Shown here one piece after another: positions 1,651 to 55,311 of a DNA stretch of 64,000 nt. The stretch spans positions 55,473 through 119,472 of the forward strand of contig JBGSTK010000147.1 in assembly GCA_041736565.1 (NCBI GenBank). The letters are read 5' to 3'. Origin of the DNA: Phycisphaeraceae bacterium (GTDB taxonomy: Bacteria > Planctomycetota > Phycisphaerae > Phycisphaerales > Phycisphaeraceae). The notes below the pieces were generated by a model. That model was given only the letters and a program-made list of their open reading frames with translations. It was not told the DNA's origin and did no database searches. How positions within the stretch are numbered: position 1 is the first letter of the stretch; every line of letters starts with the position of its first letter. A program made the translations under genes and the position numbers.

Positions 1651-2955
1651 TCATTGCTGTGATTTCGCCAGCGCTTGTTGGAGGTCAGCCTGGATATCGC
1701 GCACATCCTCGATGCCGATCGACAGGCGAATGTACTCGGGCGATACGCCGGTCTTGCGTTGTTCATCGGGCGTCAACTGGCTGTGGGTGGTGCTGGCCGG
1801 GTGGATGACGAGGCTCTTGGCGTCGCCGATGTTGGCCAGGTGCGACAGGAGTTTGCAGGAGTTGACGAACTTTTTGCCCGCCTCCATGCCGCCCTTGATG
1901 CCAAAGCCCATGATCGCGCCTTGGCCCTGGGGCAGATATTTCCTGGCATTGGCGTAGCTCTTGTGGGACGGAAGGCCGGGGTAGTTGACCCATTCCACCG
2001 CCGGCTGCTTTTCGAGCCACTGCGCCACCGCCAGAGCGTTTTCACAATGGCGCGGCATGCGCAGGTGCAGCGTTTCAATCCCCAGCAAAAATAGAAACGC
2101 AGCAAAGGGGCTCATGGCTGCGCCGGTGTCGCGCAGCCAGTGCGTGCGGATGTGAATGATGTAGCTGATGTTGCCGATGGGCCGCAACGCTTCTTCGAGA
2201 ATCACGCCGTGGTACGACGGGTCGGGCGCGCAAACTTCGGGCCATTTGGCGGGGTTATCCGCCCACTTGAACTTGCCGCTGTCAACCACCGCCCCGCCGA
2301 TGTGAACGCCGTGCCCGCCGATGAACTTGGTCGTCGAATACACGACGATGTCAGCTCCGTGCTCGATGGGCTTGAGCAGCACCGGGGTCATGACCGTGTT
2401 GTCAACGACCAGGGGTATGCCATGCCTTTTGGCGATGGCCGAGATGCCGACAAAATCGGGCACATCGTTTTTGGGATTGCCGATCGACTCCATGTAGATC
2501 AGGCGGGTTTTGTCATCCACGAGTTTGTTGATCGAGGAGGGATCCGCCGGATCGAAGAACCGCACTTCGATGCCCAGGTTTTTGAAGGTCTGAGTGAAGA
2601 GCGTCCACGTCCCGCCATAGAGCGACGTGGCGGAGACGAAATTCTGACCGCTGTGGCAGATGGTGAGGATGGCAGCGGTGATGGCGGCCTGCCCGGAAGC
2701 GAACGCCAGCCCCGCGGCTCCGCCGTCCATTGCCGCCAGACGTTTTTCCAACACATCGTTGGTCGGGTTCATCAGCCGCGTATAGATGTTGCCGAACTCT
2801 TTGAGGGCGAAGAGATTGGCGGCATGATCCGTGTCGTTGAAGGTGTAGCTGGTGGTGGCGTAGATGGGCACAGCCCGGGAGTTGGTCGTCGGGTCGGGCA
2901 CCTGACCAGCGTGAAGGGCCTGGGTTGCCAGATGATGGATTGCAGCGTCGCTCAT
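1651..2955 (-). CDS. metY: O-acetylhomoserine sulfhydrylase (PLP-dependent, Cys/Met metabolism family)
   Basis: 434-aa ORF with [26 protein letters not shown] and the PLP-lysine motif [11 protein letters not shown]. An AAGGAG ribosome-binding site sits about 8 nt upstream of the ATG. Lies directly upstream of metX/metW. Confidence 0.9.
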
Positions 2956-3243: not shown

Positions 3244-3353
3244 GAGACAAGGCGATGCCCCGAAAATTGGGCAGCCCCGAGCCGACAGGGCGTGGCCATC
3301 TTCCGAGGCACTGGTATTGCCTGTATCACAGCAGGTCAGAGTTTACACCGATG

Positions 3354-3390
3354 GACACGGATTACGGACACGGATGAACACGGATAGATG
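3354..3390. repeat. Degenerate short tandem repeat (gacacggat-type units)
   Basis: gacacggattacggacacggatgaacacggatagatg contains the cacggat unit three times, in an intergenic position. Confidence 0.4.
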
Positions 3391-3466
3391 TGGACCGCCT
3401 TGCCGCTCAGTGGCGAGCCGCGTGCGGGGCAGGACGCACAAGGCTCGAATCAAACCTCAATCGTGG

Positions 3467-3979
3467 TCACCCCGCAAATTCTCCACGCTGTGACCAAGCG
3501 TTTGGTAAAAAGTATGGGGAATGCGTAGTGGCATTCGGCAATCGCCGGCCGACCTTACGAATCCAACGCCACACGGAATCTGTAAGGCGTGCAAACGCCT
3601 CCGCATCGTAATCTAAACCATGCGGTGCAGAGAAGTCACGCGCCCAATAGATACGACCGTAACGCTTGTCGTCTAGGAAGCTCCTGTCGAACTCGAAGAC
3701 AGGCGCAGTGCTTGAGTTCACGATGTAGAACCGTCCGGCACGCTCACGTGGGCATTTCGGGCCGCCGGTCTGCGCATACGCTGGCGACCAAGGGAACGTC
3801 TGCGGCCAGATGTGAAACTGCGCGGCCGGTATCTCCCGAGTTTCCCAATCGTCGATCCACAACTCATCAATGGAAGCAGCGAAGGCTTGAAAGACGCGAA
3901 TCGGGGCGCGACTGCGGACGAAGCGCAATAGCTCAACCTCATCGGACTGCGTCGCTGCAAGTTGAAGTTGGCGTCCCAT
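3467..3979 (-). CDS. Hypothetical protein (cassette ORF)
   Basis: 170-aa ORF with an ATG start and protein-like composition (Trp/Phe-rich). No family recognised. Confidence 0.6.
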   Translation of the reverse strand: MGRQLQLAATQSDEVELLRFVRSRAPIRVFQAFAASIDELWIDDWETREIPAAQFHIWPQTFPWSPAYAQTGGPKCPRERAGRFYIVNSSTAPVFEFDRSFLDDKRYGRIYWARDFSAPHGLDYDAEAFARLTDSVWRWIRKVGRRLPNATTHSPYFLPNAWSQRGEFAG

Positions 3980-3990
3980 GTGGCGTTGCG

Positions 3991-4098
3991 GGATAACGTA
4001 AAAGGCTCTGTGCCGGCCACCTGCGGGAGCAGGCTACCAACCGACAACACTATTTTCCATCGCGACCGTCGCCGGTCAACTGCGGCCGGTGGTTAGGT
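3991..4098 (-). repeat. attC-like imperfect palindrome, family A, copy 1
   Basis: Read on the minus strand: ACCTAAC caccggccgcagttgaccggcgacgg...ggttggtagcctgctcccgcagg...gccttttac GTTATCC. Homologous to copies at 4425, 4831, 5660, 52395 and 52931. Confidence 0.5.
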
Positions 4099-4415
4099 GC
4101 TTTTTTCTTGCGGTTGGGCCACAGCCATGAGAGCGTCAAGAGTACGACACATAGTGCCGAGATAGCAGTGATACCCGTCGACAGATTAGCTTTGAATGCA
4201 CCACAGTCGCCTCCAATGCTGACCGTCCATGCTGGATGGATGGCCAGCAGGACCAACACACATATGGGCAGAGCCAAAAACCGAGGTTGAATCAACCACA
4301 GTGCCAGCGATAAAACCGCAAGGGCCGCGACAATCATTGCTTGTTCTTGAGCGTACAGGACATTGTCTAGAGTCACGTGCCCGCCGACCCATTCGATGCA
4401 CGCGAGGACGCTCAT
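4050..4415 (-). CDS. Small integral membrane protein (cassette ORF)
   Basis: The internal ATG at 4415 (MSVLACIEW...) lies about 10 nt after the GTTAGGG box. About 3 hydrophobic helices. The C-terminal 16 residues read into the next repeat. Confidence 0.55.
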   Translation of the reverse strand: MSVLACIEWVGGHVTLDNVLYAQEQAMIVAALAVLSLALWLIQPRFLALPICVLVLLAIHPAWTVSIGGDCGAFKANLSTGITAISALCVVLLTLSWLWPNRKKKAPNHRPQLTGDGRDGK

Positions 4416-4424
4416 TGACGTGGC

Positions 4425-4533
4425 CCCTAACGCAAAAGGCTCAGATGCCGGCCGCCCGCGGAAGCAGGCGTCCAACCGACCACTGGATTATCCATCGCGG
4501 GTGTCGCCGGTCAACTGCGGCTGATGGTTAGGG
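4425..4533 (-). repeat. attC-like imperfect palindrome, family A, copy 2
   Basis: On the minus strand CCCTAAC...GTTAGGG are perfectly complementary 7-mers at the two ends. Inner arms cccgcg/cgcggg and ccggc/gccgg pair with bulges. Confidence 0.55.
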
Positions 4534-4851
4534 AGCAGCTACGAGGAATTCTCGAACGAAGCTGTCTGCAAGCAGGACGACGAGTCCATAGCCACCGGCT
4601 GCCACGCAAAATAGCCCAAAACCGAGTGCCACCACCGCCTGACGAACCGCCAGTCTGTCTGCCCCAATATCGAGAGCGCGATGGCCAGGGCGGACCTTGA
4701 ACAACAACTCACGCCGCAAAATTGCACGCCCACACTTATATGTCAGCCATGTGCCCGCAACGACCATAAGGCCAAAGCACACGACCGTCGAGATGGCAAT
4801 CAACCTGACACTCGTGGGATGCACGTCGCGACCTAAACGTAAAAGCCTCAT
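4528..4851 (-). CDS. Small membrane protein (cassette ORF)
   Basis: Candidate start at 4851 (MRLLRLGRDV...). Two to three hydrophobic segments. The TAA stop lies within the CCCTAAC box of the downstream repeat. Confidence 0.5.
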   Translation of the reverse strand: MRLLRLGRDVHPTSVRLIAISTVVCFGLMVVAGTWLTYKCGRAILRRELLFKVRPGHRALDIGADRLAVRQAVVALGFGLFCVAAGGYGLVVLLADSFVREFLVAAP

Positions 4852-4940
4852 TTGTCGGCCGCCCGCGGAAGCAGGCGTCCAACCGACCACTGGATTATCC
4901 CTCGCGGGCGTCGCCGGTCAACTGCAGGCGCTGGGTAGGT
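4831..4940 (-). repeat. attC-like imperfect palindrome, family A, copy 3
   Basis: The central 60 nt are almost identical to copies 2 and 4 (ggataatccagtggtcggttggacgcctgcttccgcgggcggcc). Confidence 0.5.
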
Positions 4941-4946
4941 GCCCGA

Positions 4947-5213
4947 TCACTCAAAGTTCAAGTCACGAATCAGGTGATTATCAGCACGAATAGCGGCCGA
5001 CTGCGTAGGCGAGAGATGGAGCAGTCGGCCGAGAATCTTGCGATGACGCTCTCGGATCAAAGTCGGTTCGACGTCAGGGAGTCGAGAGCAGAGATAGCTA
5101 TCCCAAGCACCTACCGTCCAAAGATCGGCGGCATCCTTATCGGGGATCGAGATGCCGAAACCATCTTCGATCATCATCACATGCTCGACCGCGTCCATAC
5201 CCACGATTGGCAC
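4947..5213 (-). CDS. Acyl-carrier-protein-like fragment (cassette ORF) lacking the phosphopantetheine serine
   Basis: IVGMDAVEHVMMIEDGFGISIPDKDAADLWTVGAWDSYL resembles ACP helices II-III (LGxDSLDxVELVMxxEExFxIxIPDED). It has DAV where ACP has DSL, and helix I is absent. GTG start. Confidence 0.45.
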   Translation of the reverse strand: MPIVGMDAVEHVMMIEDGFGISIPDKDAADLWTVGAWDSYLCSRLPDVEPTLIRERHRKILGRLLHLSPTQSAAIRADNHLIRDLNFE

Positions 5214-5221
5214 CTAACGTA
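5083..5221 (-). repeat. 139-bp perfect direct repeat, copy 1 (5' part of the ACP-like cassette)
   Basis: Identical to 5824-5962 by direct comparison. Confidence 0.85.
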
Positions 5222-5311
5222 AGGCCGATCAGCGGCCGGGCCGGCGCCAAACGGCGCTCGACCAATGGAAACTATACCGCCGGCACGGCCCGGTGCATTG
5301 GCTGGTTATGC
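5212..5311 (-). repeat. attC-like imperfect palindrome, family B, copy 1
   Basis: On the plus strand: ACCTAAC gtaaggccg...ggccgggccggcg...cgccggcacggcccgg...ctg GTTATGC. Confidence 0.45.
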
Positions 5312-5324
5312 ACATGCTCCGCCG

Positions 5325-5663
5325 CTACAGCCAAATCTCGCCGGCGAGGCGATTGGCGCAGATGCAGAGCAGAACTCCCAAGCCGATTGACTGTGCTACC
5401 ACGTAGCGCGCCGACTTGCGATCGGTGAACTCCGGCCGCAGAAGGAACCACCACGATATTCCGCACGCCGCTGCCACTCCACACCAGAGAATAAGGTTGA
5501 AGTAGTTCGCATTGAAAAACCAATCATCCGGATTGGCAGTAACCGGTGGACAGCCGCAGCCGAACCGTTTGACCGTCCACGCCGCGTTGATCGGCTGATA
5601 CAGGGCGTGGAACACGAACGGCACGACGAACGGGAGAATGAGCAGTACCCGCCGCATGTGCAT
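5325..5663 (-). CDS. Small membrane protein (cassette ORF)
   Basis: MHMRRVLLILPFVVPFVFHAL... with about 3 hydrophobic helices and a CGC motif. The start codon overlaps the GTTATGC box. Confidence 0.5.
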   Translation of the reverse strand: MHMRRVLLILPFVVPFVFHALYQPINAAWTVKRFGCGCPPVTANPDDWFFNANYFNLILWCGVAAACGISWWFLLRPEFTDRKSARYVVAQSIGLGVLLCICANRLAGEIWL

Positions 5664-5770
5664 AACGAACAAGGCTCAGTTGCCGGCCGCCTGCGGAAGC
5701 AGGCGTCCAACCGAACCACTGGATTATCCCTCGCGGGCGTTGCCGGTCAAACTGCGGCCGGTGGTTAGGT
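5660..5770 (-). repeat. attC-like imperfect palindrome, family A, copy 4
   Basis: On the minus strand: ACCTAAC caccggccgcagtttgaccggcaacgcccgcgagggataatccagtgg...gccttgttc GTTATGC. Confidence 0.5.
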
Positions 5771-5954
5771 TGCTCCTTCGCGGTGAGGTCGGGGCGAGTA
5801 GCCACGATAAAAACTCCCCATAGCGAGAGCAGAGATAGCTATCCCAAGCACCTACCGTCCAAAGATCGGCGGCATCCTTATCGGGGATCGAGATGCCGAA
5901 ACCATCTTCGATCATCATCACATGCTCGACCGCGTCCATACCCACGATTGGCAC
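5724..5954 (-). pseudogene. Truncated duplicate of the ACP-like cassette ORF
   Basis: The first 44 codons match 4947-5213 exactly. The reading frame then diverges and runs into repeat A4. Confidence 0.45.
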
Positions 5955-5962
5955 CTAACGTA
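5824..5962 (-). repeat. 139-bp perfect direct repeat, copy 2
   Basis: Identical to 5083-5221. Confidence 0.85.
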
Positions 5963-6051
5963 TCTGCCGTTCACTGGCCGCGGCCGCGCCGACGACCATT
6001 CGAATGGATTAAACGCTCCGCGGCCGCGGTCCAGTGCAGCGGCGGTTAGCT
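5953..6051 (-). repeat. attC-like imperfect palindrome, family B, copy 2
   Basis: On the plus strand: ACCTAAC gta ctgccgttcactggccgcggccgcg ... cgcggccgcggTccagtgcaGcggcg GTTAGCT. The arms pair with a bulged T and a bulged G. Confidence 0.55.
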
Positions 6052-6639
6052 CGCCTGCGGGAACGGCTCCTTCGTGAACAGCCGCGGCGCACTTGGTGAA
6101 CCCAACGCCGCCTTCCACTCCTTCCGCCGCTCGAGTTGCCTCAGCGCCCAACGGAACGCCGTGAGCGACGTCCGCGCGTCGAGCCAACGAAGCCCGTCGC
6201 TCAGGAGAATGCTCGTGACCTCCGCCAACTCCTTCCGCATGACGCGCGGGGCCTCGCTCTGACACCACCAGTGGTCACGTGGCTCCGGACACCGCCCGAG
6301 CATGCGATTAACGATGCCACGCGCGGGAGGACGAAAGAAGCCCAGCCGCTGCACCAGATCCGAAAGGCACTCGGGCGATTGCGGCTCGCCATCCGGCGTT
6401 GGCCACGACGGCGGCAAGTGGTTGGGATTAAACACGGCCAAGTTGACCGTGAACCGACCTATCGACCACCCCTTGTGGCCGACTTGGAACTCGATGATCT
6501 GCGTCGATCGCGTCTGCTCGTGCTCGACCACTCGGCGGAAGATTCGCCACTCGCCCAACGTGAAGCCGTGGGCGGCAAGGGCCGGGACTACATCGGCCCG
6601 GAACTGTCGGTCGAACTCTCGGAGGGCTTCGGACGGCAT
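6046..6639 (-). CDS. Hypothetical protein, DUF4304-like by motif pattern (cassette ORF)
   Basis: The ATG at 6639 lies about 15 nt after the GTTAGCT box. ALREFDRQFRADVVPALAAHGFTLGEWRIFRR...IIEFQVGHKGWSIGRFTVNLAV fits my recollection of the DUF4304 pattern. The TAA stop lies inside the next TAAC box. Confidence 0.6.
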   Translation of the reverse strand: MPSEALREFDRQFRADVVPALAAHGFTLGEWRIFRRVVEHEQTRSTQIIEFQVGHKGWSIGRFTVNLAVFNPNHLPPSWPTPDGEPQSPECLSDLVQRLGFFRPPARGIVNRMLGRCPEPRDHWWCQSEAPRVMRKELAEVTSILLSDGLRWLDARTSLTAFRWALRQLERRKEWKAALGSPSAPRLFTKEPFPQAS

Positions 6640-6653
6640 ACAGCGTCGTGGCG

Positions 6654-6755
6654 AGCTAACGTACCTGACGTTCAATGGCCGGCACCGCGCCGACCGACTT
6701 TGGTTTTACCACAACGCCCGACGCGGGGCCGGTCCATTGCAGCGTTTGGTTATGC
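6654..6755 (-). repeat. attC-like imperfect palindrome, family B, copy 3
   Basis: On the plus strand: AGCTAAC gta ctgacgttcaatggccggcaccgcg ... cgcggggccggTccattgcaGcgtttg GTTATGC. The arm pattern and bulge positions match copy 2. Confidence 0.55.
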
Positions 6756-7130
6756 GGGCTCGGTGAACGCGATGAAGTATCCATCGGGATCTTTGACAGC
6801 GAACTCACGCATTCCATAGTCCATCACTTCCGGACCCCACGCGAATTCAACTTGGCCTCGCAACTCGGCGGCAAGCGATTCAACGTCATCTGGGTAGATG
6901 TAAAATGTGCCGCTGCATACGGGTGACGAAGGTGTGCCGTGGGGCGCTTGATCATGAAACTGCAGGGTTATGCCATCTCGCTTAACTTGTGCCCAATGTG
7001 GCGAGAGCTGATCCGGGAGCAGCGCGGTCACCTCGAACCCGAGCCGTTGGTAGAAGTCAATTGATGCCCGTATGTCGCGTACGAGCAAGGCCGGAACGAG
7101 GCGGCTGCCGATGTTTTGTGAAGTGGTCAT
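6750..7130 (-). CDS. VOC-family (glyoxalase/bleomycin-resistance/dioxygenase fold) protein (cassette ORF)
   Basis: MTTSQNIGSRLVPALLVRDIRASIDFYQRLGFEV...FYIYPDDVESLAAELRGQVEFAWGPEVMDYGMREFAVKDPDGYFIAFTE. ATG at 7130. The TAA stop lies within the TAAC box. Confidence 0.8.
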   Translation of the reverse strand: MTTSQNIGSRLVPALLVRDIRASIDFYQRLGFEVTALLPDQLSPHWAQVKRDGITLQFHDQAPHGTPSSPVCSGTFYIYPDDVESLAAELRGQVEFAWGPEVMDYGMREFAVKDPDGYFIAFTEPA

Positions 7131-7225
7131 TGTTTTGCCCGCATAACAGTTATTAGATGGATCCGCATAACACCCCGGAAACGCTCCTGTGGTCAGTATA
7201 AGTTTCCCGCGCACACGGGAGACGT

Positions 7226-8089
7226 TTGTCCGTAAGCCAGTTTAACATTCTCATGAGCAGCCATTGGGCAGTTGAGTTAGTTGGGTTATCGGCCAAGTGG
7301 CTTCGCCGGGGGGGCCGGGGGCTTCGCCGCGCAGTCCGTTACCTTTTGCCAGAAAGCCATTCCCTACGGCTAGAAAGCCAATACTTTCTGCCAGAAAGCC
7401 ATTACTTACGGCCAGAAAGCCATTACTTACGCGGTGATGTCGTGTGTTATTGGGACGGAATGGCTGGGCGCTTTGGCACGGCGGGTGGCCCCCGGCTCAG
7501 GGGCGTCCCTGGGCCAATCGGCCACGACGGTTCACGCCACGGGCGAGTGAGGTTGGTTGGGTTATTGGCCAGTTGGCTTGGCCGCGCGGGAGGGGGTCTG
7601 CCCATTTTCCCGGGACGGGTTCTGGCGCTCCCCTGCTCAGGGCCGGAGGCCCGGCACAACCGTAGCTCGGTCCGTCAGGGCCGAGAAAGCGACGCCCCAA
7701 AATCCCCCCTCTTTTCTTATTTCGTGAGGCCCGGAGGGCCGGCACATCTGTAGCTGGACCGTGAGACCCGGATAACGATGCCCCGCTACCTCGGGTCCTG
7801 GGCCCTGACGGGCCGAGTTAGCAACGTGCCGCCCCTCCGGGGCTCAGGACAGGGGAAACGGCGTGGGGTGGAGATACTCGCGTTCTCGGCCCTGACGGGC
7901 CGAGCTATCAATGTATCGCCCCTCCGGGGCTCAAACCATCGGCATCAGAGCCCGCCCCGGAAAATGGGCAGCCCCCCCGGACCCCGGACCCCGGACGAGG
8001 GACAGACCCGGCCGGTACATCAATTTGCGGAATGCGTTAAACTTGGGGATTCGGCCAAAGCCAGGTGTATTTGGTTGGCGGAGCAACGT
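7226..8089. repeat. Repeat-dense non-coding island holding several short repeat families
   Basis: gttgggttatYggccaRgtggcttSgccg occurs at about 7275 and 7556. ggccctgacgggccgagYtaNcaaYgt...cgcccctccggggctca occurs at about 7800 and 7885. ggcccggaGGgccggcacaNcYgtagctSg occurs at about 7648 and 7727. The supplied ORFs here translate to Arg/Gly/Pro-rich junk. Confidence 0.6.
7348..7431. repeat. Tandem repeat, 4 x 21 bp (gccagaaagccattacttacg consensus)
   Basis: Units lie at 7348, 7369, 7390 and 7411. The last two are identical. The first two differ at 2 and 7 positions. Confidence 0.85.
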
Positions 8090-11000
8090 ATGTCGTTAAT
8101 GCAGACGTGGGGGCCTCAGTTCCATATCAGTGTGCGGAACAAGGGCCGGTTGTACCAGCAGCAGGGGCGTGTGCGCCAGGTGCCGCCCGAGTCCGGGGAG
8201 ATTGTGCGTGCCGAGGTCGAGGGCTCGCGCACGTACATTGTGACGCTGGGCCAGGCCCAGGGTCAGCCGCGCGTCACCTGCACCTGCCCGGATTTTGTTT
8301 CGGGCCAATACTGCAAGCACATCTACGCCACCCTGCTCGACGTGACCCACAACGGCATCACGGGCAGCGATGACGACACCCAAACCGTGACGCCGGGCGA
8401 AAGCTCAATCTCCAGCGTGGACCTGGATGACGGTGCGCCACCGCCACCGCCCAAAGCACGCCGCCGCCAGGGGCCATCCCGACCTGCGACACCTGCGGAG
8501 CCGGAATGGGTCGGCCGCCTGACGCTGCTTCGCCCCTCAAGCACGTTGTTCGTTGACGGCGCTGCGGCTGCACCCGCCACCAATGTGCGGCAAGTCTGCT
8601 ACGTGGTGAGCGTGGAGCTTTCACGTCAGCACAATGGTCTGGTTGTCGAGTTGTTCCAGCGCACGCCGGTCCGCACGGGTTGGAGCGCGCTCAAACGTCT
8701 GCGCATTGCAGCCGGGACGTTGGGCGAACTTTACGATCCGACGGATCGCGAACTCTGTGCGTTACTGTTGGGGGCAGCTTCCGTCAGTGAAACAAGCCCA
8801 TCGTGGAGCGGCAGCTACGATCGACCGCTGGATGGCTACCGCGTGTTGCCCAGCGCTCGCCAGACCATGCTCCGCCGACTCATCGAGACCGGCCGCTGCT
8901 TCCTCGATGACGGCGACAGTCTGACCGATGAGCCCACGTCGCAGCCGATTCCGTTGAGTTGGGATGGCCCCGAGCCGTGGATGCTTTGGATGGTCGGTCG
9001 CGAGGATGAGCAGGCGATGACCGTCACCGTGGAGCTTCGCCGAGGTTCGACGGCCACGGGCTCCACCGAAGAAGGCACGCGACAGGAACGGCAAGAGCGA
9101 CAGGAACGAGCGGAGCGGCAGGAACGGGTAGAGCGCGTCGATGTGATCCAACCGCGATTGATGCTCGGCGGTGAGAACGGCCTGGTCTTCATTGGCCAAA
9201 AGGCAGCGCCGCTGGATGATCGCGATGCGTTTGCATGGGCTTCGCAGTTCCGCGATGCGTTGCGTGACAAGGGCGACGTCGAGCCGATCCGTGTGCCGCT
9301 GGCGGATGTTGAGCGGTTTCTGGATCGCCTGTACCTGCTGCCGAATTTGCCTGAAATCGAGTTGCCGCCGGGCGTGGCGCGTGAAGAGCGTCGCATGGAG
9401 CCCACGCCTCACTTCGAGCTGTTTTCGCCGCGGGTTGGTGACGGCGTTGGCGAGAGCAGGACGGCATCGAAGAATATGCTGACCGGTCGGCTGTGGTTCG
9501 CCTACGAGAATTACCGCATCAAACCCGGCCAACCCGGGCGCTTCGTGCCCGCCACGGCGACGATCGAAACCGACGATGACGCCACGGAGTCGGATGAGAA
9601 CACGCAGCTTGAAACCGACGATGAGCAAGCGACGTCAGTGTCGGCAGCAGTACCCGAGATCGACGACACCGATGGCGATGCTGATGTGCAGGACACAGAC
9701 GAAAACGCCAACGTCGACGCCGACGATCAATCGGCCGCAGCGCCACAGCAAGTCTTGCTTCGCCGCGACCTTCGGCGGGAGGAAGAGGCGCTGTCTTCGC
9801 TGGTGACTCTGGGCTACCGCCCCGACGGAGCGATGGCCACGGCCCAGTCGCTGGGTGGCACATTGGCGACCAAGTTCATGCCCCACGTCGTCAGCACGCT
9901 CCTTAGCCGCGGCTGGATCGTCAAAGCGGATCGACGCATCATCCGCCAAGCTGGGGCACCAAGCCTCTCGATCACCAGTGGCATCGACTGGTTCGAACTC
10001 CACGGCGGAGTCAGGTTCCAATCGCAAAGCGGTGACCAGACCGTCGGTCTGCCCGAAATCCTAAACGCCCTCCGCCGGGGCGAAAGCATGGTCACTCTCG
10101 GCGACGGCACCCAAGGCCTGCTGCCAGAACAGTGGCTCAAGGAACACGGACTGCTATGGAGCATCGGCGAAGTTGAAGATGACCACCTGCGTTTCCGCAT
10201 GAGTCAGGCGGCGCTGCTCGATGCGCTGCTCGATGAACAGGTGCTCGTCGATGTGGATGCACGCTTCGCTGAGGCACGCGACCGCCTGCGGCACTTCGAC
10301 GGAATCACGCCGCTCGATGCGCCACTAAGCTTCGTGGGTAACCTGCGACCTTACCAGCGCGATGGCCTGGGTTGGCTGGCGTTTTTGCGCTGGTTCGGCA
10401 TGGGCGGTATCCTCGCCGACGACATGGGCCTGGGCAAGACCATTCAGGTTTTGGCCATGCTCGACGATTATTATGCCGCGGCTCGCGCGACAATTCCCGA
10501 CGGCTCGAACGCTAGCACTAGCGACGAGAACAACGCCAACGGTGCAGACAACGGCCGATCTCCCACCCTCAGCCCGCCAACGCACCGTCCGACCCTCGTC
10601 ATCGCGCCGCGATCCGTGGTCTTCAACTGGATCGACGAAGCGCAACGTTTCACGCCTAATCTACGGGTGCTCTCGTACAACGGCACGGAACGCCAGAGTC
10701 TGCGCGACGCCTTTGCCCATCACGATCTGATCGTCACCTCCTACGGGTTGATGCGGCGTGACATCCAGGAACTGCGCAAGCATGCTTTCCACTACCTTGT
10801 GCTAGATGAAGCGCAAGCCATCAAGAATCCCGGCTCGCAGGTCGCCAAAGCTTCACGACTGCTCACAGCTGAGCATCGCCTGGCGTTGACAGGCACGCCC
10901 GTGGAAAATCATCTGGGTGATTTGTGGTCGATCTTTGAGTTCCTCAACCCCGGCATGCTGGGCAGCGCCACGCACTTCGGCGACCTGGTCAAGTGGGCCT

Positions 11001-11971
11001 CGCAGGAATCGCGCTACGCACGAAATCGTGCGGCCAACGCGACGCCTCTGGGCATGCCCGACAACGGCGAGGGCGGAGCTGAGGATGACGCTGATCTCGA
11101 AAATCTCGGCGGCGGCGTCGATGACGCGATGCGCAGCACGCAGGTGGCGACGCAAGTCGGGCGGTCCCTGCGGCCGTTCATCCTGCGACGTACCAAGCGC
11201 CAGGTGCTTGACGACCTGCCGGAGAAGACCGAGCAGACGATCCATTGCGAAATGGAGTCAGCGCAACGCAAGGTATACGACGACCTGCTGCGACACTACC
11301 GCGGCACATTGCTGGCGCAGAGCGGCGCGTCCGGAAACGCAACCGGCTCCACTCCCGCCACCGCGGGCGGCAACTCCATGATCGTCCTGGAAGCATTGCT
11401 GCGCCTGCGACAAGCGGCATGCCACCCCGGCCTGATTGATCCAAGCCGTTGCGATGAACCCAGCGCTAAGCTCGAAGCGTTGCTTGAGAATGTCCGCGAG
11501 TTGATTGCCGAGGGACACAAGGCACTGATCTTCAGCCAGTTCACGTCGTTCCTGTCGATCGTGCGCAAGCGTTTGGAAACCGAGGATATCCGCTACGAGT
11601 ATCTCGATGGCCAAACGCGACACCGTAAGCAACGTGTGCAGCGGTTCCAGACCGATCCCGATTGCCCGCTGTTTCTCATCAGCCTCAAAGCGGGCGGCCT
11701 GGGGCTCAATCTCACGGCTGCGGACTACGTCTTTATCCTCGATCCGTGGTGGAACCCCGCGGTGGAGAATCAGGCCATCGATCGCGCCCATCGCATCGGG
11801 CAGACGCAGCACGTCTTTGCCTATCGCATGATTTGCGAGAACACCGTCGAGCAGCGCATCGCCGAGTTGCAGGACAAGAAGCGCAACCTCGCTGATGCCA
11901 TCATCGGCGAACAACAGGAGAGCCTGCTGCGCTCGCTGACCCGCGATGATCTGGAAAAACTACTGAGCTAG
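8090..11971 (+). CDS. SNF2/RAD54-family helicase with an N-terminal SWIM zinc finger
   Basis: SWIM motif CTCPDFVSGQYCKH. Helicase motifs ILADDMGLGKT, LVLDEAQAIKN, LALTGTPVEN and LKAGGLGLNLTAADYVFILDPWWNPAVENQAIDRAHRIGQ. I chose the ATG at 8090 because codons 1-104 of the supplied ORF lie in the repeat island. Confidence 0.9.
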   Translation: MSLMQTWGPQFHISVRNKGRLYQQQGRVRQVPPESGEIVRAEVEGSRTYIVTLGQAQGQPRVTCTCPDFVSGQYCKHIYATLLDVTHNGITGSDDDTQTVTPGESSISSVDLDDGAPPPPPKARRRQGPSRPATPAEPEWVGRLTLLRPSSTLFVDGAAAAPATNVRQVCYVVSVELSRQHNGLVVELFQRTPVRTGWSALKRLRIAAGTLGELYDPTDRELCALLLGAASVSETSPSWSGSYDRPLDGYRVLPSARQTMLRRLIETGRCFLDDGDSLTDEPTSQPIPLSWDGPEPWMLWMVGREDEQAMTVTVELRRGSTATGSTEEGTRQERQERQERAERQERVERVDVIQPRLMLGGENGLVFIGQKAAPLDDRDAFAWASQFRDALRDKGDVEPIRVPLADVERFLDRLYLLPNLPEIELPPGVAREERRMEPTPHFELFSPRVGDGVGESRTASKNMLTGRLWFAYENYRIKPGQPGRFVPATATIETDDDATESDENTQLETDDEQATSVSAAVPEIDDTDGDADVQDTDENANVDADDQSAAAPQQVLLRRDLRREEEALSSLVTLGYRPDGAMATAQSLGGTLATKFMPHVVSTLLSRGWIVKADRRIIRQAGAPSLSITSGIDWFELHGGVRFQSQSGDQTVGLPEILNALRRGESMVTLGDGTQGLLPEQWLKEHGLLWSIGEVEDDHLRFRMSQAALLDALLDEQVLVDVDARFAEARDRLRHFDGITPLDAPLSFVGNLRPYQRDGLGWLAFLRWFGMGGILADDMGLGKTIQVLAMLDDYYAAARATIPDGSNASTSDENNANGADNGRSPTLSPPTHRPTLVIAPRSVVFNWIDEAQRFTPNLRVLSYNGTERQSLRDAFAHHDLIVTSYGLMRRDIQELRKHAFHYLVLDEAQAIKNPGSQVAKASRLLTAEHRLALTGTPVENHLGDLWSIFEFLNPGMLGSATHFGDLVKWASQESRYARNRAANATPLGMPDNGEGGAEDDADLENLGGGVDDAMRSTQVATQVGRSLRPFILRRTKRQVLDDLPEKTEQTIHCEMESAQRKVYDDLLRHYRGTLLAQSGASGNATGSTPATAGGNSMIVLEALLRLRQAACHPGLIDPSRCDEPSAKLEALLENVRELIAEGHKALIFSQFTSFLSIVRKRLETEDIRYEYLDGQTRHRKQRVQRFQTDPDCPLFLISLKAGGLGLNLTAADYVFILDPWWNPAVENQAIDRAHRIGQTQHVFAYRMICENTVEQRIAELQDKKRNLADAIIGEQQESLLRSLTRDDLEKLLS

Positions 11972-12972: not shown

Positions 12973-13743
12973 TCAATGTGCTTCGAGCGTGCCGACTTCG
13001 ATGTCCAACTCATCACGTCGCTGGAGCCGATCCACCTGGCCGTCCTTGATCCACAGCACGCGGTCGGAGTTGGCCAGCATCTTGTGGTCATGCGTGGCGG
13101 TGATGACCGTCACGCCGGTCTCAGTCGAGAGGGCTTTGAGCAGGTTGATGATGTCGCCGCCGGTTTTGAAGTCGAGGTTAGCCGTCGGCTCATCGGCCAG
13201 AAGAATGGCCGGCTCATTGACCAGAGCGCGGGCGATGGCCACGCGTTGCTGCTGCCCACCCGAGAGTTCATCGGGGCGGTGAGTAACGCGGTTGCCCAAG
13301 CCGACCTGCTCCAACACCTTCATGGCCTGCGCCTCGGCATCGACTTCGCTAAGACCCGCAAAAACCGCGGGCAGCGCGACGTTGCGAAGCGCGGTGAGTG
13401 AGGGAATGAGGTTGTATGCCTGGAAGATGTAGCCGATGTAGTTGCACCGCACGAACGCCAATTGACTGGATGTCAGCTTGGTCAGTTCCAACGGGCCGAT
13501 GCTCACGCCGCCTTTGGTCGGGTGATCCAGCGCACCGACGATATTAAAGAGCGTGGATTTGCCTGATCCCGACGGGCCCATGATCGAGAGGTATTCGCCT
13601 CGGAAAATGTCGAGGGTGACATCACGGAGGGCATAGACCTCGCCGTGCTTGATCTTGTAGACCTTCGACACGTTCTTGACGCCGATGAGCTTGGCGCCCA
13701 GCGGGATGAGGTCCTTCATGGAGTTGGCTTGCGGTTGAGGCAT
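12973..13743 (-). CDS. ABC transporter ATP-binding protein (MacB/LolD/FtsE-like)
   Basis: Walker A GPSGSGKST, signature LSGGQQQRVAIARAL and Walker B ILLADEPTANLD. Confidence 0.9.
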   Translation of the reverse strand: MPQPQANSMKDLIPLGAKLIGVKNVSKVYKIKHGEVYALRDVTLDIFRGEYLSIMGPSGSGKSTLFNIVGALDHPTKGGVSIGPLELTKLTSSQLAFVRCNYIGYIFQAYNLIPSLTALRNVALPAVFAGLSEVDAEAQAMKVLEQVGLGNRVTHRPDELSGGQQQRVAIARALVNEPAILLADEPTANLDFKTGGDIINLLKALSTETGVTVITATHDHKMLANSDRVLWIKDGQVDRLQRRDELDIEVGTLEAH

Positions 13744-13795
13744 TGGCGTGAGGTTTCATAATGCGGCCAAGGCCGCGGTTGATCGAGGTCGGGGG

Positions 13796-15922
13796 TCAGA
13801 ACGGCAACTTGAAGACGGCTTTACTCAGGAACGTGAAGCCGATGGAAAGCGTCCCGATGAGGCCCATGCCGCAGGAGAACCCGGCGAAGACCACGGGAAT
13901 GTACTGTCGCCACTTGAGTCCCAGGCGTTTCTGGAAGTAGAAGCGTCCGATGAGTGCGCCGATGAACTGGATGATGATCGAGTGCGGTTCGCTCTGTCCC
14001 AGTCCGCGAACAATTCCGTAGACCAGGAACGTCGGCCAACCCAGCCAACTCATGCAGGTGAACGCAACGGTGCCCAAGCCGAAGCCCAAGCCGACGTAAA
14101 GCGGTCGGAACGCCTTTTCAAAGAGCGAGTAGCCGCCCAGGGTGGACGAGAACACGACCGACTGATTCTCAGCCTGTAATTCCCACATCACCTGTGCGTA
14201 GGGATACTGCGGCCCGGGCACCTGCCCCAGACTCCAGATGAACTGCGCAAAGAGCAGACTCGACAAAATAATGATGGGCGTGAGGATGATCTCGGCTTTC
14301 CAGATCGACCAGAAGCTCGTGCCGGTCAGTTCAGCCTGGCGATAGAAGACGGTCATGCGGCCATAGTCGTGGATTGGCACGGGCAGGAACCACACTGCCA
14401 CGCCCTGATAGCCCGAGAGGATAAACCCGGCTTCCTTTACAAAGGGGATCGACACCACCTGCCCGGCGATGCCTTCGAGTCGCGCGGTGGCGTAGCTGAT
14501 CAGTGGCGTATAGACAAAACCGTAGAAGAACATAACCACCAGCACGCCGGTTTCATTCCATCCGATGAGCGTCATCGACACGGTGATGTAGAGCAGCGTT
14601 GAGACGAGATAGGTGACGATGATCCAGCGGGTCTTGATGTCGCCGCGACCCTCGGGCGTGGTGACCATGCCCTCGGCCTGGACCTCGTCGTTCTTCTTCA
14701 TCTTCCGGAGCTTCAACATGCCTTTGACGACGGCAACGATGCCCGTCACGGCGATGGCCAACGAGATGCCGATGGTGAAGCTGAAGTAGAAATCGACGTT
14801 GTTCTTGAAGATGGTGGCGACTGTGCTGTCGCCGACGTTCCAAGCTTTGAGGACGGTACCGCCTTCAAAACCCAGCCAGGCGACGGCGGGGAAATTGACG
14901 TTGTAGAGAATCGGGTTGAGGATGAAGGTGATGATGAGCCCGATGAACGAGCCGACCATGGCGAAGAACGGCAGGACCATGCCCACCAGGAGTTGCCCGA
15001 GGTCGAAGGTCAGGCCCGTCGCCACCGCGTGAAGCCATTCGCCAGTCTGCGGGGTGAAATCCACCCAGGGAATGGGCAGGATGATGATCGGCTTTCCGAG
15101 CATGGCGCCGGTGATGGTGGGGATACCGAGGTAGACGACGCCAAAGAGCAATCCGATGACGCCGCCGACGGAGAAGACACGCCAGCGCCACGAGCCCTGG
15201 GTAATTTCGTTGCCATCGTCATCGACATTCTTGCGTGATTCCTCTGCCTGTTCTTCGGACAATGCGAGGATGCCCTGGGCGCCGACGGGAGCCATGGGGA
15301 ACGGGAGTCGTTCGACGTCGCTGGCAAGTCGGAAAAGTCCGTAGCCCAGGATCATGTTGTCGATGCGGGCCATGAGCGTTGAGAAGACAACGAGCCCCAG
15401 TGCCGGGAGCCACTCCGCGCGGAACAATGATCGCACCGCCAGTACGTCGGGGTCGTTGGGGGCGTACCAGTGGGGGAGGAACTCGGCGATGCCGTGAGCT
15501 TGGGCGGCATTGGACTGGACGTAGAACTGGTTCCAGAGGATGCCCGAGAAGGGCGAGGCCATTGCGGCAGCCGCCAGATAGAAGAGTGTGAAGATTTCCG
15601 CGTTTTTGAGGGTCTTGTTGGCGCGACGTGCAACTTCGATGAAGAGGATGACCGTCACCCATTTGGCGGCTTCACTCATCGAGCCGGCATGCCCGACTAG
15701 CAGACTCATATACATCGTGCCGGGCACCATCAGCACTGCCACGAACAACGCTCCGAAGAACGCCGGCCATGTGAAGCCGTTCTCGAAAGTCGAGGGCGGC
15801 TGCATCAGGCTGCGGAACTCCTCGAGTTCACGATCCTGTCGCTTGGTGCGGATCGACGCCCCGATATTCGCCGGTTCGCGGCGATGAGGCGGGGTCGCAT
15901 TGGGATTCAGTTCATCAGCCAC
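13796..15922 (-). CDS. Large polytopic membrane protein, possibly related to OPT-type transporters
   Basis: 708 aa with more than 12 hydrophobic segments. ERLPFPMAPVGAQGILAL resembles the OPT-family FPSG motif region. Family assignment is tentative. Confidence 0.7.
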   Translation of the reverse strand: MADELNPNATPPHRREPANIGASIRTKRQDRELEEFRSLMQPPSTFENGFTWPAFFGALFVAVLMVPGTMYMSLLVGHAGSMSEAAKWVTVILFIEVARRANKTLKNAEIFTLFYLAAAAMASPFSGILWNQFYVQSNAAQAHGIAEFLPHWYAPNDPDVLAVRSLFRAEWLPALGLVVFSTLMARIDNMILGYGLFRLASDVERLPFPMAPVGAQGILALSEEQAEESRKNVDDDGNEITQGSWRWRVFSVGGVIGLLFGVVYLGIPTITGAMLGKPIIILPIPWVDFTPQTGEWLHAVATGLTFDLGQLLVGMVLPFFAMVGSFIGLIITFILNPILYNVNFPAVAWLGFEGGTVLKAWNVGDSTVATIFKNNVDFYFSFTIGISLAIAVTGIVAVVKGMLKLRKMKKNDEVQAEGMVTTPEGRGDIKTRWIIVTYLVSTLLYITVSMTLIGWNETGVLVVMFFYGFVYTPLISYATARLEGIAGQVVSIPFVKEAGFILSGYQGVAVWFLPVPIHDYGRMTVFYRQAELTGTSFWSIWKAEIILTPIIILSSLLFAQFIWSLGQVPGPQYPYAQVMWELQAENQSVVFSSTLGGYSLFEKAFRPLYVGLGFGLGTVAFTCMSWLGWPTFLVYGIVRGLGQSEPHSIIIQFIGALIGRFYFQKRLGLKWRQYIPVVFAGFSCGMGLIGTLSIGFTFLSKAVFKLPF

Positions 15923-49850: not shown

Positions 49851-50873
49851 TCAACCCATCGCCATCGTGGACTTGTGCGCGGTGTGATCCGTCGGCTTGC
49901 GGAACTGCGAGAGGTCGAGGCTGCGGAAGTATTCGATGGTCTTGGTTAGACCTTGCCGCAGGTCCACCGTCGGCGACCAGCCGAGGCGCGCCTTGGCCAG
50001 CGTGATATCAGGCCGACGCTGCGACGGGTCATCGGCGGGCAGCGGCATGTAATGCAACTTGCTCGATGAGCCCGTCAACTCAATGATCAACTCCGCCAAC
50101 TGCTTGATCGTGAACTCACCAGGATTCCCAAGGTTCACCGGGCCGACCCAGCGCTTGCCTTGCGCATCGACATCAGGCGAGTTCATCATGCGGATGATGC
50201 CTTCCACCAGATCATCGACGTAGCAGAATGATCGCGTCTGCTGACCTTCGCCGTAGATGGTGATGTCCTGATTCGCCAATGCCTGGATGATGAAGTTCGA
50301 CACCACGCGGCCGTCGAAGGGGTGCATGCGTGGGCCGTAGGTATTGAAGATTCGCACCACGCGGATGTTGACGCCGTTGGCGCGGTGGTAATCGAAGAAG
50401 AGCGTTTCGGCGGCTCGTTTGCCTTCGTCGTAACAGGCACGCACACCGATGGGGTTGACGTTGCCACGATAGCTTTCGGGCTGCGGATGAATCTCCGGCT
50501 CACCATAGACTTCACTCGTCGAAGCCTGCAGCACTTTGGCGCGGCAGCGCTTGGCCATGCCCAACACATTGATCGCACCCATCACGCTGACCTTCATGGT
50601 CTTAATGGGGTTGTACTGGTAATGCACCGGCGAGGCGGGGCAGGCCATGTTGTAAATCTCATCGACCTCCAGCCAGATCGGATGCGTCACATCGTGGCGC
50701 ACGAGTTCGAAGTTGGGGCGGCCCAGCAGGTGCGCGATGTTCTGCTTCTGGCTGGTGAAGAAATTATCCAGGCAGATGACATCGTGGTCCTGCGCCACGA
50801 GACGATCGCAGAGGTGCGAGCCCAGGAACCCGGCCCCGCCGGTGATGAGAATGCGTTTGAGTGATTTGGACAT
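49851..50873 (-). CDS. UDP-glucuronate decarboxylase (UDP-xylose synthase), extended SDR
   Basis: [35 protein letters not shown] and [13 protein letters not shown] at 50873. Confidence 0.9.
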
Positions 50874-50941
50874 GGGCGGAGTAAGCCTTGTTTGGTTGAG
50901 TGAAGGTTGGCGATGACCCGCGCCCGTGATCGGAGGCTGGT

Positions 50942-51361
50942 TCAATGAACAACCGTAGGCGTCCAGGTGGCGCCACGTTCGAGATCGAAGCTAACAAGTT
51001 GATCGACCGCAAAGTCGCTCGCCTTTTGTCGGGCATCGCTGAGCGTGACGGTTACCGGAGCAGCGCCGCAGTGGACCGTCAGCGTGTTGGCGGCGGAGTC
51101 GGTGGCGACGATCCAGCCCTGGAGTCGGCGTGGGCGGCCGTAAACTGGCTCGATGTACCGGCCACCTGCGGGTACTACATCCACTCGCCGCGCCACGCCT
51201 TGGATGGTGCCGCTGACGCGGTCGCCGGGCTTGCCGACGTTGGCTGCTGGGTCGCTGACCAGATGCAGCCGATAATCCGAATGGGGTACTGCGAGGATGA
51301 TGGTGCCCTGACCGACCTCGTGGAGCGTGCCGTGGGCATGGATGGTTGTCGCTTGGGTCAT
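50942..51361 (-). CDS. Hypothetical protein
   Basis: 139-aa ORF with protein-like composition. No family recognised. Confidence 0.5.
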
Positions 51362-52044: not shown

Positions 52045-52238
52045 GCTGACTAAGGGGGTTGCTTTGGGCAAAGGTGCTGCCGAAGGAGGTGTGGCCGACG
52101 GTAGAGTGAGTTTGGTACAATGTGACAGCGCACCTTGAATGAACAGCACTCCGGTTCAGACAGTAGCAGACAGCCTGCATTCCCCGGATCAGTCCGTTTG
52201 TAGGTTCATTGTTATCCCCTAACTCCGGGAGATTTCCA

Positions 52239-52394
52239 GTGATCAAGTGGTTCCTTTTCGTTCTCGCATTGATCGCATCATTGATATCTATCGCCCCGGA
52301 CGCCAACAGCGCTGGCGGATCTGCTGCCGGCCTTTGGATCGGCTTCGCTCTTCTTCACGTCGAAGACAAGCGATCTAAGAGGCCTCACGGGTGA
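52239..52394 (+). CDS. Small two-helix membrane protein (candidate cassette ORF)
   Basis: A GTG start gives VIKWFLFVLALIASLISIAPD...GLWIGFALLHV. Short, so low confidence. Confidence 0.3.
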   Translation: MIKWFLFVLALIASLISIAPDANSAGGSAAGLWIGFALLHVEDKRSKRPHG

Positions 52395-52470
52395 GTAATC
52401 GATATCCATGCGTTGTCGGTTGACCTGCTACGAACGCGGGCGGTCGACTGGTAAGCCCTTTACGTTAGGG
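52395..52470 (+). repeat. attC-like repeat, family A homologue
   Basis: gcgttgtcggttgacctgctacgaacgcgggcggtcgactggtaagccctttacGTTAGGGG aligns with gtgttgtcggttggtagcctgc...gcgggcggccggcatctgagccttttgcGTTAGGGG of the main array. Confidence 0.5.
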
Positions 52471-52476
52471 GTCACT

Positions 52477-52740
52477 GTGCTCAACCCACGCAGCCTGATC
52501 TTTATCATTCCAGCCACTTTGATATCGCTTCGCTTCGCAAATCTGATCGACGGGGGTCCCTTCGCGTTGCATTTTACGGTGGACAGAGACCTTGTCGCCT
52601 ACCATCCGCGAACTCTGGCGTGGAACCGCATCGGTCATGAGCCTCTCACTTGTACCAAGTGTGGCTACGATCTCCGCGGTTCGCTCGACAGTGCCACCTG
52701 CCCTGAATGTGGTGAAGCGTTTGATTGGCTCGACGATTAA
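52477..52740 (+). CDS. Small protein with a C-terminal zinc ribbon (CxxCGYDLRG...CPECG)
   Basis: The GTG at 52477 lies 6 nt after GTTAGGG. One TM-like segment. Contains CTKCGYDLRGSLDSATCPECGEAF. Confidence 0.45.
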   Translation: MLNPRSLIFIIPATLISLRFANLIDGGPFALHFTVDRDLVAYHPRTLAWNRIGHEPLTCTKCGYDLRGSLDSATCPECGEAFDWLDD

Positions 52741-52930
52741 GGCAACGGTGCAAGCCTGGGGATGGCAACAGACTTGGGAGGGCGACGCTCCGCGGAGCCG
52801 GGACGCGGGGAGGTGCCAACGTTGGGCAGTGGCCTTCGCGGCTCGAAAGAACCTCGCCCTCCTGGATTATTGGTTTAAGCGAATTTTGCCGTGGGATGCT
52901 TTTGCCCAGCTCTGGCCTTTGCGTTGGGTA

Positions 52931-53019
52931 GACACGGCGACGGTCACGATGGATAATCAGCCTTCCGGTTGGGAGCCTGCTTCCGCGGGCGGCCGGCGAA
53001 TGAGCCCTTTACGTCAGGC
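52931..53019 (+). repeat. attC-like repeat, family A homologue with a degenerate core (GTCAGGC)
   Basis: gacacggcgacggtcacgatggataatcagccttccggttgggagcctgcttccgcgggcggccggcgaatgagccctttacGTCAGGC aligns along its whole length with repeat A1 read on the minus strand. Confidence 0.5.
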
Positions 53020-53025
53020 CAACAC

Positions 53026-53403: not shown

Positions 53404-53472
53404 ACTTCGCGGCTCGGTAGAACATCGCCCTCCCGGGTTCGTGGTTCGTCGTCGTTCGCGGCGCGTCGCCGC

Positions 53473-55311
<1,839 letters not shown>

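Follow-up and report, generated by a model that had tools for sequence, protein, structure and literature searches.

In a 64,000-nucleotide stretch of the genome of a Phycisphaeraceae bacterium (contig JBGSTK010000147.1 of assembly GCA_041736565.1; hereafter the window), the minus strand carries a head-to-tail row of eight small gene cassettes, at positions 3390-7156 between an SNF2 gene and metY. We conclude that this locus is a CALIN (a cluster of attC sites lacking an integron integrase) whose attC sites are of the planctomycete type, and we put the probability of this reading at roughly 0.92. By the published definition (PMC4889954), a CALIN has two or more attC sites on the same strand, separated by less than 4 kb, and no intI in the vicinity. 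The label CALIN-like, which an earlier note had given to the array from the sequence alone, fits that definition: seven sites lie on one strand inside 2.8 kb, and there is no intI within 4 kb, in a search that extended 57 kb towards the promoter-proximal side of the array and 3.4 kb towards the distal one. Each of the seven stands at the 3′ end of an open reading frame (ORF) and is oriented with it, at spacings of 293-697 bp. Orphan arrays of this kind are well known; the find is genuine but ordinary and leaves the current understanding of integrons unchanged. Its contribution is a thoroughly documented cassette array without an integrase, from a phylum that has been little studied, the Planctomycetota.

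Cassettes and attC sites of the array

All eight minus-strand ORFs that the earlier note had placed between metY and the SNF2/SWIM helicase gene are present in the ORF list (Table 1). They are 76-197 codons long, and every one of them has a coding-type base composition, with GC1 > GC2 < GC3 (the GC contents of the three codon positions). The proposal that GC is lower here than in the flanking genes holds in part. GC3 is 0.57-0.66 in six of the eight cassettes as against 0.74-0.79 in metY, the SNF2 gene, rpoD and an epimerase gene, whereas c2 and c4 are no different from the housekeeping genes in this respect, and the overall drop is small (0.595 in the array, 0.618 in the window).

A palindrome had been proposed to follow each ORF, and this is so for seven of the eight; after the last, 3467-3979, only an eroded remnant is found (about 3390-3466). 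The palindromes are imperfect, 100-110 nt long and, read on the ORF strand, begin with (C/G/A)(C/A)TAAC and end with GTTA(G/T)(G/C)N, a5 being the sole exception. The ends (C/A)TAAC ... GTTA(G/T), present in six of the seven, correspond to the R″ and R′ boxes of attC (RYYYAAC/GTTRRRY). The inverse core (TAAC) and core (GTTA) described earlier are borne out at these six sites and fail at a5, where the inverse core reads CCTACCC and the core, with a 1-nt insertion, GTTTAGG; a5 is probably a poor recombination substrate. Sequence comparison upheld the division into two families, A (a3, a5, a6, a7) and B (a1, a2, a4), which are alike only in the outer 20-25 nt of each side. With the remnant counted as an eighth site, six are intact, one has damaged core boxes (a5) and one is eroded (a8); a7 has kept its R and L boxes intact and has an eroded inner stem.

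The fit between ORFs and repeats is close. The stop codons of c1 (6750), c2 (6046) and c6 (4528) are, as had been noticed, the TAA of the TAAC box in a1, a2 and a6. Two further ORFs, c3 and c7, read through the inverse core and stop in the palindrome apex, the last 20 residues of c7 being encoded by a7. Start codons lie 0-14 nt past the GTTA box or overlap it in seven ORFs (c1, c2, c3, c4, c5, c7 and c8): the ATG of c4 is inside the a3 core GTTATGC, and the GTG of c5 overlaps the a4 core GTTAGGTG. The earlier claim of starts 0-15 nt past the box is doubtful for c6 only, since its proposed ATG (4851) lies inside a5; translation may really begin at a GTG or TTG past the a5 core.

Of the cargo assignments, that of c1 as a VOC/glyoxalase protein is supported by Pfam, and the DUF4304-like reading of c2 holds only remotely, through one 45%-identical homologue that carries PF14137. 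For an 'acyl carrier protein-like' reading of c3 and c5, Pfam offers no support at E<=0.1. The ORFs are not housekeeping genes kept in synteny. In relatives whose MetY is 83% identical, other genes adjoin metY on the array side, and the array and attC sites are both absent; these relatives are too distant to permit a presence/absence comparison. Homologues of c2 and c8 occur between attC sites in unrelated contexts. An 85%-identical homologue of c2, in a metagenome-assembled genome (MAG) of the Tepidisphaeraceae (locus L117), is situated between attC sites of 61.8 and 44.7 bits in a different chromosomal context. For c8, which has about 100 homologues, a 65%-identical one in locus L040 forms a cassette with its own attC, two cassettes from intI and with its stop in the CCTAAC box. 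The presence of c2 and c8 in different arrays indicates that cassettes circulate among these bacteria. When all cassette proteins were compared by tblastn with the attC-bearing loci, no shared cassette was found and only the attC-encoded tail of c7 matched.

Two cassettes are related to each other. A 139-nt perfect duplication (5083-5221 = 5824-5962) covers a cassette 5′ end; the identity starts at TACGTTAGG, the core of the otherwise dissimilar a4 and a2, and stops abruptly inside the ORF. In c3, the second copy, the sequence is cut short and joined to 55 nt of unrelated DNA that precedes a3. An identity that starts at two attC cores and ends abruptly points to the recent copying of a cassette at a second attC, followed by a truncating deletion.

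Table 1. Coordinates of the array and associated features in the window (attC scores in bits for covariance models R1, R3 and R2; z, folding energy relative to shuffles).
Feature	Position	Strand	Description
Non-coding island of local repeats	7214-8090		about 0.9 kb, where intI would be expected
attI-like junction	7141-7156	-	CTAATAACTGTTATGC; GTTATGC core 10 nt before c1 start codon
Cassette c1	6750-7130	-	126 aa, VOC/glyoxalase/bleomycin-resistance fold; Pfam PF00903 4e-11, 43.8 bits (cut-off 20.6); GC3 0.61
attC a1	6654-6756	-	B type; GCATAAC ... GTTAGCT; R1 81, R3 40.2, R2 20.7; z -3.55
Cassette c2	6046-6639	-	197 aa, uncharacterised, remotely DUF4304-related; 25 homologues
attC a2	5953-6052	-	B type; GCTAAC ... 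GTTAGGT; R1 75.7, R3 46.9, R2 22; z -5.23
Cassette c3	5724-5954	-	truncated chimeric copy of c5; first 131 nt identical to c5, then frame enters a3
attC a3	5660-5768	-	A type; CCTAAC ... GTTATGC; R1 110, R3 88.8; contains TTGACC-N16-GATAAT
Sigma-70-like site in a3	5723-5750	-	9-10 of 12 consensus positions (range for the four sites)
Cassette c4	5325-5663	-	112 aa, three hydrophobic segments; no Pfam match; same protein in public contig annotation
attC a4	5212-5312	-	B type; GCATAAC ... GTTAGGT; R1 81.6, R3 39.8, R2 15.6; published HMM E 6.7e-5
Cassette c5	4947-5213	-	88 aa; no Pfam match; source copy of 139-nt duplication
attC a5	4831-4940	-	A type, damaged; R1 110, R3 94.4
Sigma-70-like site in a5	4894-4921	-	as for a3
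Cassette c6	4528-4851	-	small protein, two hydrophobic segments; no Pfam match
attC a6	4425-4534	-	A type, best-preserved; CCTAAC ... GTTAGGG; R1 115.5, R3 100.7; z -2.6; 7-bp R box
Sigma-70-like site in a6	4487-4514	-	as for a3
Cassette c7	4050-4415	-	121 aa, three hydrophobic segments; no Pfam match
attC a7	3991-4099	-	A type; CCTAAC ... GTTATCC; R1 96.3, R3 73.3; z +0.31
Sigma-70-like site in a7	4052-4079	-	as for a3
Cassette c8	3467-3979	-	170 aa, conserved uncharacterised family; start codon 11 nt past a7 core
a8, eroded terminal attC remnant	3390-3466	-	3′ half CCCCGCACGCGGCTCGCCACTGAGCGG recognisable; core lost (GGTCCAC); 5′ half deleted or diverged
metY	1651-2955		Pfam Cys_Met_Meta_PP 9e-136
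SNF2/SWIM helicase gene	7778-11971		ORF start probably overcalled (local repeats at 5′ end)
Decayed A-type attC pair	52395-53019	+	half-site 52395-52470 (core GTTAGGG); site 52909-53019 (core GTCAGGC)

An attC family shared with integrase-linked arrays

One line of evidence that the repeats are attC sites comes from models of which none was trained on the window sites. R3 is a covariance model made from nine IntI-linked attC sites of a single locus, L008, of a Phycisphaeraceae MAG; R2 was made from 17 sites of a second, unrelated array beside another integron integrase, in L040; and the third is the sequence part, a profile hidden Markov model (HMM), of the published Planctomycetes attC covariance model, which we rebuilt from supplement 3 of Ghaly et al. 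(2021; PMC8352920). R3 recovers all seven sites at 40-101 bits (E 1e-10 to 4e-29), then a site in a second cluster at 52909-53019 with 37 bits, and nothing further above 15 bits. With R2, the B sites are the top three matches in the window. The published HMM also finds only the B sites, at full length and on the ORF strand; a4 alone is significant, and a1 and a2 are marginal (E 0.14 and 0.22; 0.01 for a1 when only the array is searched). Elsewhere the same HMM finds 17 sites in L040 and nine in L008, all on the ORF strand. A further covariance model, R1, scores the seven sites at 76-115 bits and sets them apart from the rest of the 64 kb. Models of attC, the kind of check that the earlier note had called for, do match the repeats. 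The published consensus, GCCUAAC-AAuGC-GUU-G-CAgC ... GCUGAaC-UucGuC-GUUAGGC, agrees in layout with the window sites, down to the unpaired G of the 5′ arm, and the locus belongs to the planctomycete attC class already modelled (PMC8352920). An Rfam scan of the whole window returned no family at gathering score, attC not being an Rfam family.

The second line of evidence is structural. A consensus fold of the seven sites was computed with RNAalifold on the plus strand of the window, which is the bottom strand of the cassettes. It consists of a 4-bp TAAC/GTTA helix, an unpaired spacer, a 13-bp helix with single-base bulges in its 3′ arm, a GC-rich inner helix and a variable tip, and nine of its 24 pairs carry compensatory changes between the A and B families. 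Among 78 family members (from this window and from 16 loci in other genomes), pairing holds in 95.5% of cells, both sides have changed in 12 of the 24 pairs and the TAAC/GTTA pairs are retained in 65-71 members. None of 500 shuffles reaches any of five measures of this pairing, and slid partners leave only 23-41% paired. The suggestion that structure is conserved beyond sequence is in this way confirmed across both families and against both kinds of control. The single-base bulges (alignment columns 94, 96 and 102) fall on the 3′ arm of the bottom strand, that is, the 5′ arm of the cassette strand, as do the extrahelical bases of attC. The bottom-strand extrahelical base here would be C, compared with G in attC-aadA7. 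On the cassette strand, the extra G in GC(T/C)-G-CAG of the 5′ arm is the unpaired position 16 (GUU-G-CAGC) of the published Planctomycetes model.

The same repeat occurs elsewhere in the company of integrases. A scan of one genome per species with a degenerate A-family motif gave 31 loci, the planctomycete ones being from Phycisphaeraceae MAGs, Pirellulales, Planctomycetaceae and Adhaeretor mobilis. Wherever there are at least two copies they form dense, co-oriented arrays with a spacing of about 300-700 bp; such co-oriented arrays were seen in 15 planctomycete loci. In the Phycisphaeraceae MAG MFD03250.bin.1.191 (L008/L021), the array begins 152 bp from a divergent tyrosine recombinase of 371 residues, which scores 339 bits on NCBIfam TIGR02249 'integron integrase' (cut-off 265), and its first cassette starts at GTTAGCC. 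A second integrase, 47% identical to this protein, is found beside an A-type attC (99 bits) in L053, a locus from a metagenome scan. A complete integron is present in L040 (JASCQV010007449.1, 6048-16340), with an IntI of 462 bits on TIGR02249 and at least 17 attC sites; this array, one cassette of which is homologous to c8, is interrupted by IS110-family transposase genes (9863-10822 and 13300-14259). L117 (Tepidisphaeraceae MAG DATBFY010000491.1, 5276-7870), the source of the 85%-identical c2 copy, is another integrase-less attC array. One attC family is thus common to Phycisphaeraceae, Pirellulales, Adhaeretor and Tepidisphaeraceae-type genomes. Integrons in Planctomycetes have been documented before (PMC4889954).

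Set beside known systems, the array most resembles published CALINs (Cury et al., 2016; PMC4889954), from which it differs in nothing essential. Those have five sites on average (seven or eight here), mostly cargo of unknown function without antibiotic-resistance cassettes, and in 95% of cases no recognisable intI pseudogene, as here; what is particular to the present one is its attI-like head, eroded terminal attC and truncated duplicated cassette. The planctomycete chromosomal integron of L008/L021 shares the attC family, its own model scoring the A sites of the window at 73-101 bits, and the packing of ORF and attC into cassettes of 300-700 bp. Both that integron and the class of Ghaly et al. 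(2021) also have the same R″/L″ layout (CCTAAC, 5-nt spacer, G(C/T)T-G-CAG). The window differs from planctomycete chromosomal integrons in having no intI and no Pc region and in mixing the A and B sub-families in a short array, and its A sites differ from the published class in reading GCC-G-CAG rather than GCT-G-CAG. With the VCR of the Vibrio cholerae superintegron there is a likeness in the homogeneous, species- or clade-typical attC of more than 100 nt, in stops inside the inverse core and in mostly ORFan cargo, but that system is of another phylum, with an unrelated attC sequence and about 180 cassettes instead of eight, and here there is no integrase and no toxin-antitoxin cassettes were detected.

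Several observations weigh against identifying the locus as a planctomycete-type CALIN. R2 gives the A sites only about 10 bits (E about 1), and the published HMM, in its sequence part, misses all four of them, likely because they carry GCC-G-CAG where the model wants a near-invariant T. Folding as single-stranded DNA, which the earlier note had recommended, supports a1, a2 and a6; a3, a4, a5 and a7 have z-scores of -1.5 to +0.3, with a7 no better than shuffles. Folding energy is significant for three sites only and is for this reason not used as a main argument. The strand-asymmetry count of G.T against A.C pairs (48 versus 33, p = 0.12) is not significant and is biased by the construction of the model. 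The attI-like match described below depends on three to four reference junctions of a poorly conserved element. Finally, the array shows decay, in the damaged cores of a5, the eroded stem of a7, the remnant a8 and the truncation of c3, and it may no longer be mobilisable.

A different kind of repeat would be the simplest alternative: repetitive extragenic palindromic elements (REP), miniature inverted-repeat transposable elements (MITE) or terminators unrelated to integrons, between chance ORFs of GC-rich DNA. Like the repeats here, such elements are GC-rich, lie between genes, recur in several copies and form imperfect palindromes about 100 nt long; two more degenerate copies lie 45 kb away, several sites fold no better than shuffles, and five of the eight ORFs, c3-c7, have no Pfam match and no demonstrated family or homologue, homologue searches having covered c2 and c8. 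We reject this explanation, since the repeats are co-oriented, one at each ORF 3′ end, with integron core and inverse-core boxes, and are not scattered as the earlier note had thought they might prove to be: in the window they are confined to the array and the one decayed cluster at 52.4-53.0 kb, with no copies in the other approximately 55 kb of intergenic and genic DNA, and elsewhere they form only co-oriented arrays, twice beside integron integrases. In addition, c1 is a Pfam VOC protein, c2 and c8 have 25 and about 100 homologues, all the ORFs have the coding-type composition described above, and a terminator scan stayed at background level.

Ends of the array and the origin of the CALIN

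The promoter-proximal end of the array retains what looks like the insertion site of an integron. An attI-like junction, CTAATAACTGTTAT, stands ahead of the first cassette, and a second GTTATGCGG lies 23 nt further upstream (about 7165-7171). For comparison, the IntI-linked junctions read CTTAATCACTGTTAGGC (L053 and L050), TCTAATCATAGTTAGCC (L008) and TCTACTACTAGTTAGGC (L040). The 3′ ends of attC sites read ...TTTACGTTAGG (TTTAC|GTTAGG), whereas the array head reads ...TAATAACT|GTTATGC. A motif taken from L053, L050 and L008, YTAATCAYWGTTAG, has one match with at most two mismatches in the 64 kb, at 7143-7156, as against 0.39 expected over the window as a whole.

An intI gene is missing from this end, as the earlier note had observed: tblastn with five integron integrases over the whole 64 kb found nothing better than E 0.2, and neither an IntI nor a pseudogene; no tyrosine recombinase turned up beside the array or elsewhere in the window. 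Unlike in a complete integron, the position next to the array holds non-coding repeats and then the SNF2/SWIM gene. A search of 7100-8200 for an intI remnant, with the same five proteins and a reduced search space, gave only short, non-collinear matches of at most 22 bits. The statement that there is only a repeat island past 7214 also stands, with local non-coding repeats up to 8090 and no IntI-like coding remnant. The island comprises a tandem repeat of four 21-nt units (7348-7431, GCCAGAAAGCCATTACTTACG), direct repeats (7260-7323/7536-7599, 7639-7667/7727-7755 and 7801-7846/7888-7933) and an inverted pair (7663-7692/7878-7907), and neither the rest of the window nor the fetched loci contained further copies of them. 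Since the ORF 7778-11971 extends across these repeats, the SNF2/SWIM protein probably begins near 8090. A comparison of the island with the fetched loci brought up only L036, a public contig copy of this locus whose overlap, at 7131-7181, lies below the island.

At the distal end, the sequence after c8, CCCCGCACGCGGCTCGCCACTGAGCGGCAAGGCGGTCCAC, aligns with the 3′ half of the attC subtype CCCCGCGGGCGGCTCGCAACTGAGCGGGGAGACGTTAGG in L028, L025 and L003; this partner is the GCTCGC/GAGCGGGGAGAC subtype. The remnant matches none of the covariance models R1, R2 and R3. Beyond it, towards metY, positions 3330-3390 of the minus strand contain short direct repeats of ATCCGTGT-like units (catctATCCGTGTtcATCCGTGTccgtaATCCGTGTccatcggtgt), and a search of the fetched loci for DNA resembling the metY-proximal spacer gave nothing informative.

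How would such an array have arisen? Taken together, a head that resembles attI, the absence of intI and the erosion of the tail suggest a sedentary chromosomal integron that lost intI, an origin to which we give somewhat better than even odds. In that event intI would have been replaced by the repeat-filled non-coding stretch, and the attI-like head with the eroded distal attC would offer a readable example of a chromosomal integron decaying into a CALIN. By analogy with established integron biology, the bottom strand of each attC (the plus strand of the window) would fold into a hairpin with a paired R box (TAAC/GTTA), an unpaired spacer, an L box with extra L″ bases and a variable tip; an integron integrase would cut between the G and TT of the core, excise circles of ORF plus attC and reinsert them. 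With no integrase in the 64 kb, the array should be static unless an incoming element, or another part of the genome, provides an IntI, and until then it would act as a cassette reservoir.

An intact intI may instead still be present. A rearrangement might have left it with its own attI and more cassettes at another place in the genome, still exchanging cassettes with this cluster. This is a serious, though clearly less probable, account. The window is 64 kb of a 120-kb contig from an incomplete genome; the 139-nt perfect duplication, starting from a core site, suggests recent integrase activity; the second small attC cluster at 52.4-53.0 kb shows cassettes placed at more than one locus; at least two arrays stand apart from each other in the Phycisphaeraceae MAG of L008 (L008/L021 and L028); and for about half of CALINs, the replicon also encodes IntI (Cury et al., PMC4889954). 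On the other hand, the attI-like junction was kept at the head of the array, where a simple split should have left attI with intI, and several of the sites are decayed.

It is improbable that no integron platform ever existed here and that the cassettes were inserted beside metY at a secondary, non-att site of the GWT type. Insertion by IntI at places other than att sites has been documented (bioRxiv 10.1101/2022.09.11.507474; PMC4889954), the window shows no detectable intI pseudogene, and the c2 homologue of L117 is also in a short array without intI. Eight cassettes in the same orientation would, however, be many for such events, and the head junction resembles IntI-linked attI junctions rather than a random GWT or the 3′ end of an attC.

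Promoter-like sites in the attC sites and a second cluster

No sigma-70-like site for a Pc promoter was seen on the minus strand of 7131-8200, in a consensus scan that is weak for planctomycetes, whose promoters are poorly known. All four A-type attC sites, by contrast with the B sites, contain TTGACC-N16-GATAAT (GAAAAT in a7), pointing into the next cassette, and sigma-70-like sites in the cassette direction are found only there. Among 66 family members of other genomes (L003-L031), 49 have a -10-like hexamer 15-19 nt from TTGAC, as against 1.7 in shuffles. These members are related by descent, their commonest spacing is a suboptimal 15 nt and the -35 is also explained by the conserved stem. 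In the hairpin, the putative -35 TTGACC would occupy the L″-proximal stem, including the bulged A, and the -10-like GATAAT, TAGAAT or TATAAT the apex. Transcription starts have been mapped inside an attC of a Vibrionaceae cassette (PMC11014356). It is conceivable, but on these motifs doubtful, that A-type attC sites double as portable promoters, each transcribing the next cassette; given the apparent lack of Pc, expression of the array may rely on the four sites present here. If this were true, arrays including integrase-less CALINs would stay expressed without Pc. The attC-embedded promoter is the only lead of wider reach from this locus and bears on how distal and CALIN cassettes are expressed.

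The second cluster (52200-53450, plus strand) lies between the epimerase gene (49851-50945) and rpoD (53473-55311). Its site at 52909-53019 has 34.6 bits with R1 and 37.1 with R3, and both this site and the half-site at 52395-52470 have blastn similarity to A-type attC sites of at least eight loci. The small ORFs of the cluster, which these two copies flank, are at about 52239-52394, at 52476-52740 (weak zinc-ribbon matches) and at 53026-53403 (Zn_ribbon_TFIIB, 2e-23). At 52211-52223, GTTATCC is directly followed by CCTAAC. A 29-nt motif, CTTCGCGGCTCGnnAGAACnTCGCCCTCC, occurs twice (52834-52862 and 53405-53433; none expected), each time shortly past one of these small ORFs. An imperfect palindrome of some 85 nt (GGAGGGCGA ... 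TCGCCCTCC), which is not an attC of the A or B type, has the first copy as its 3′ arm.

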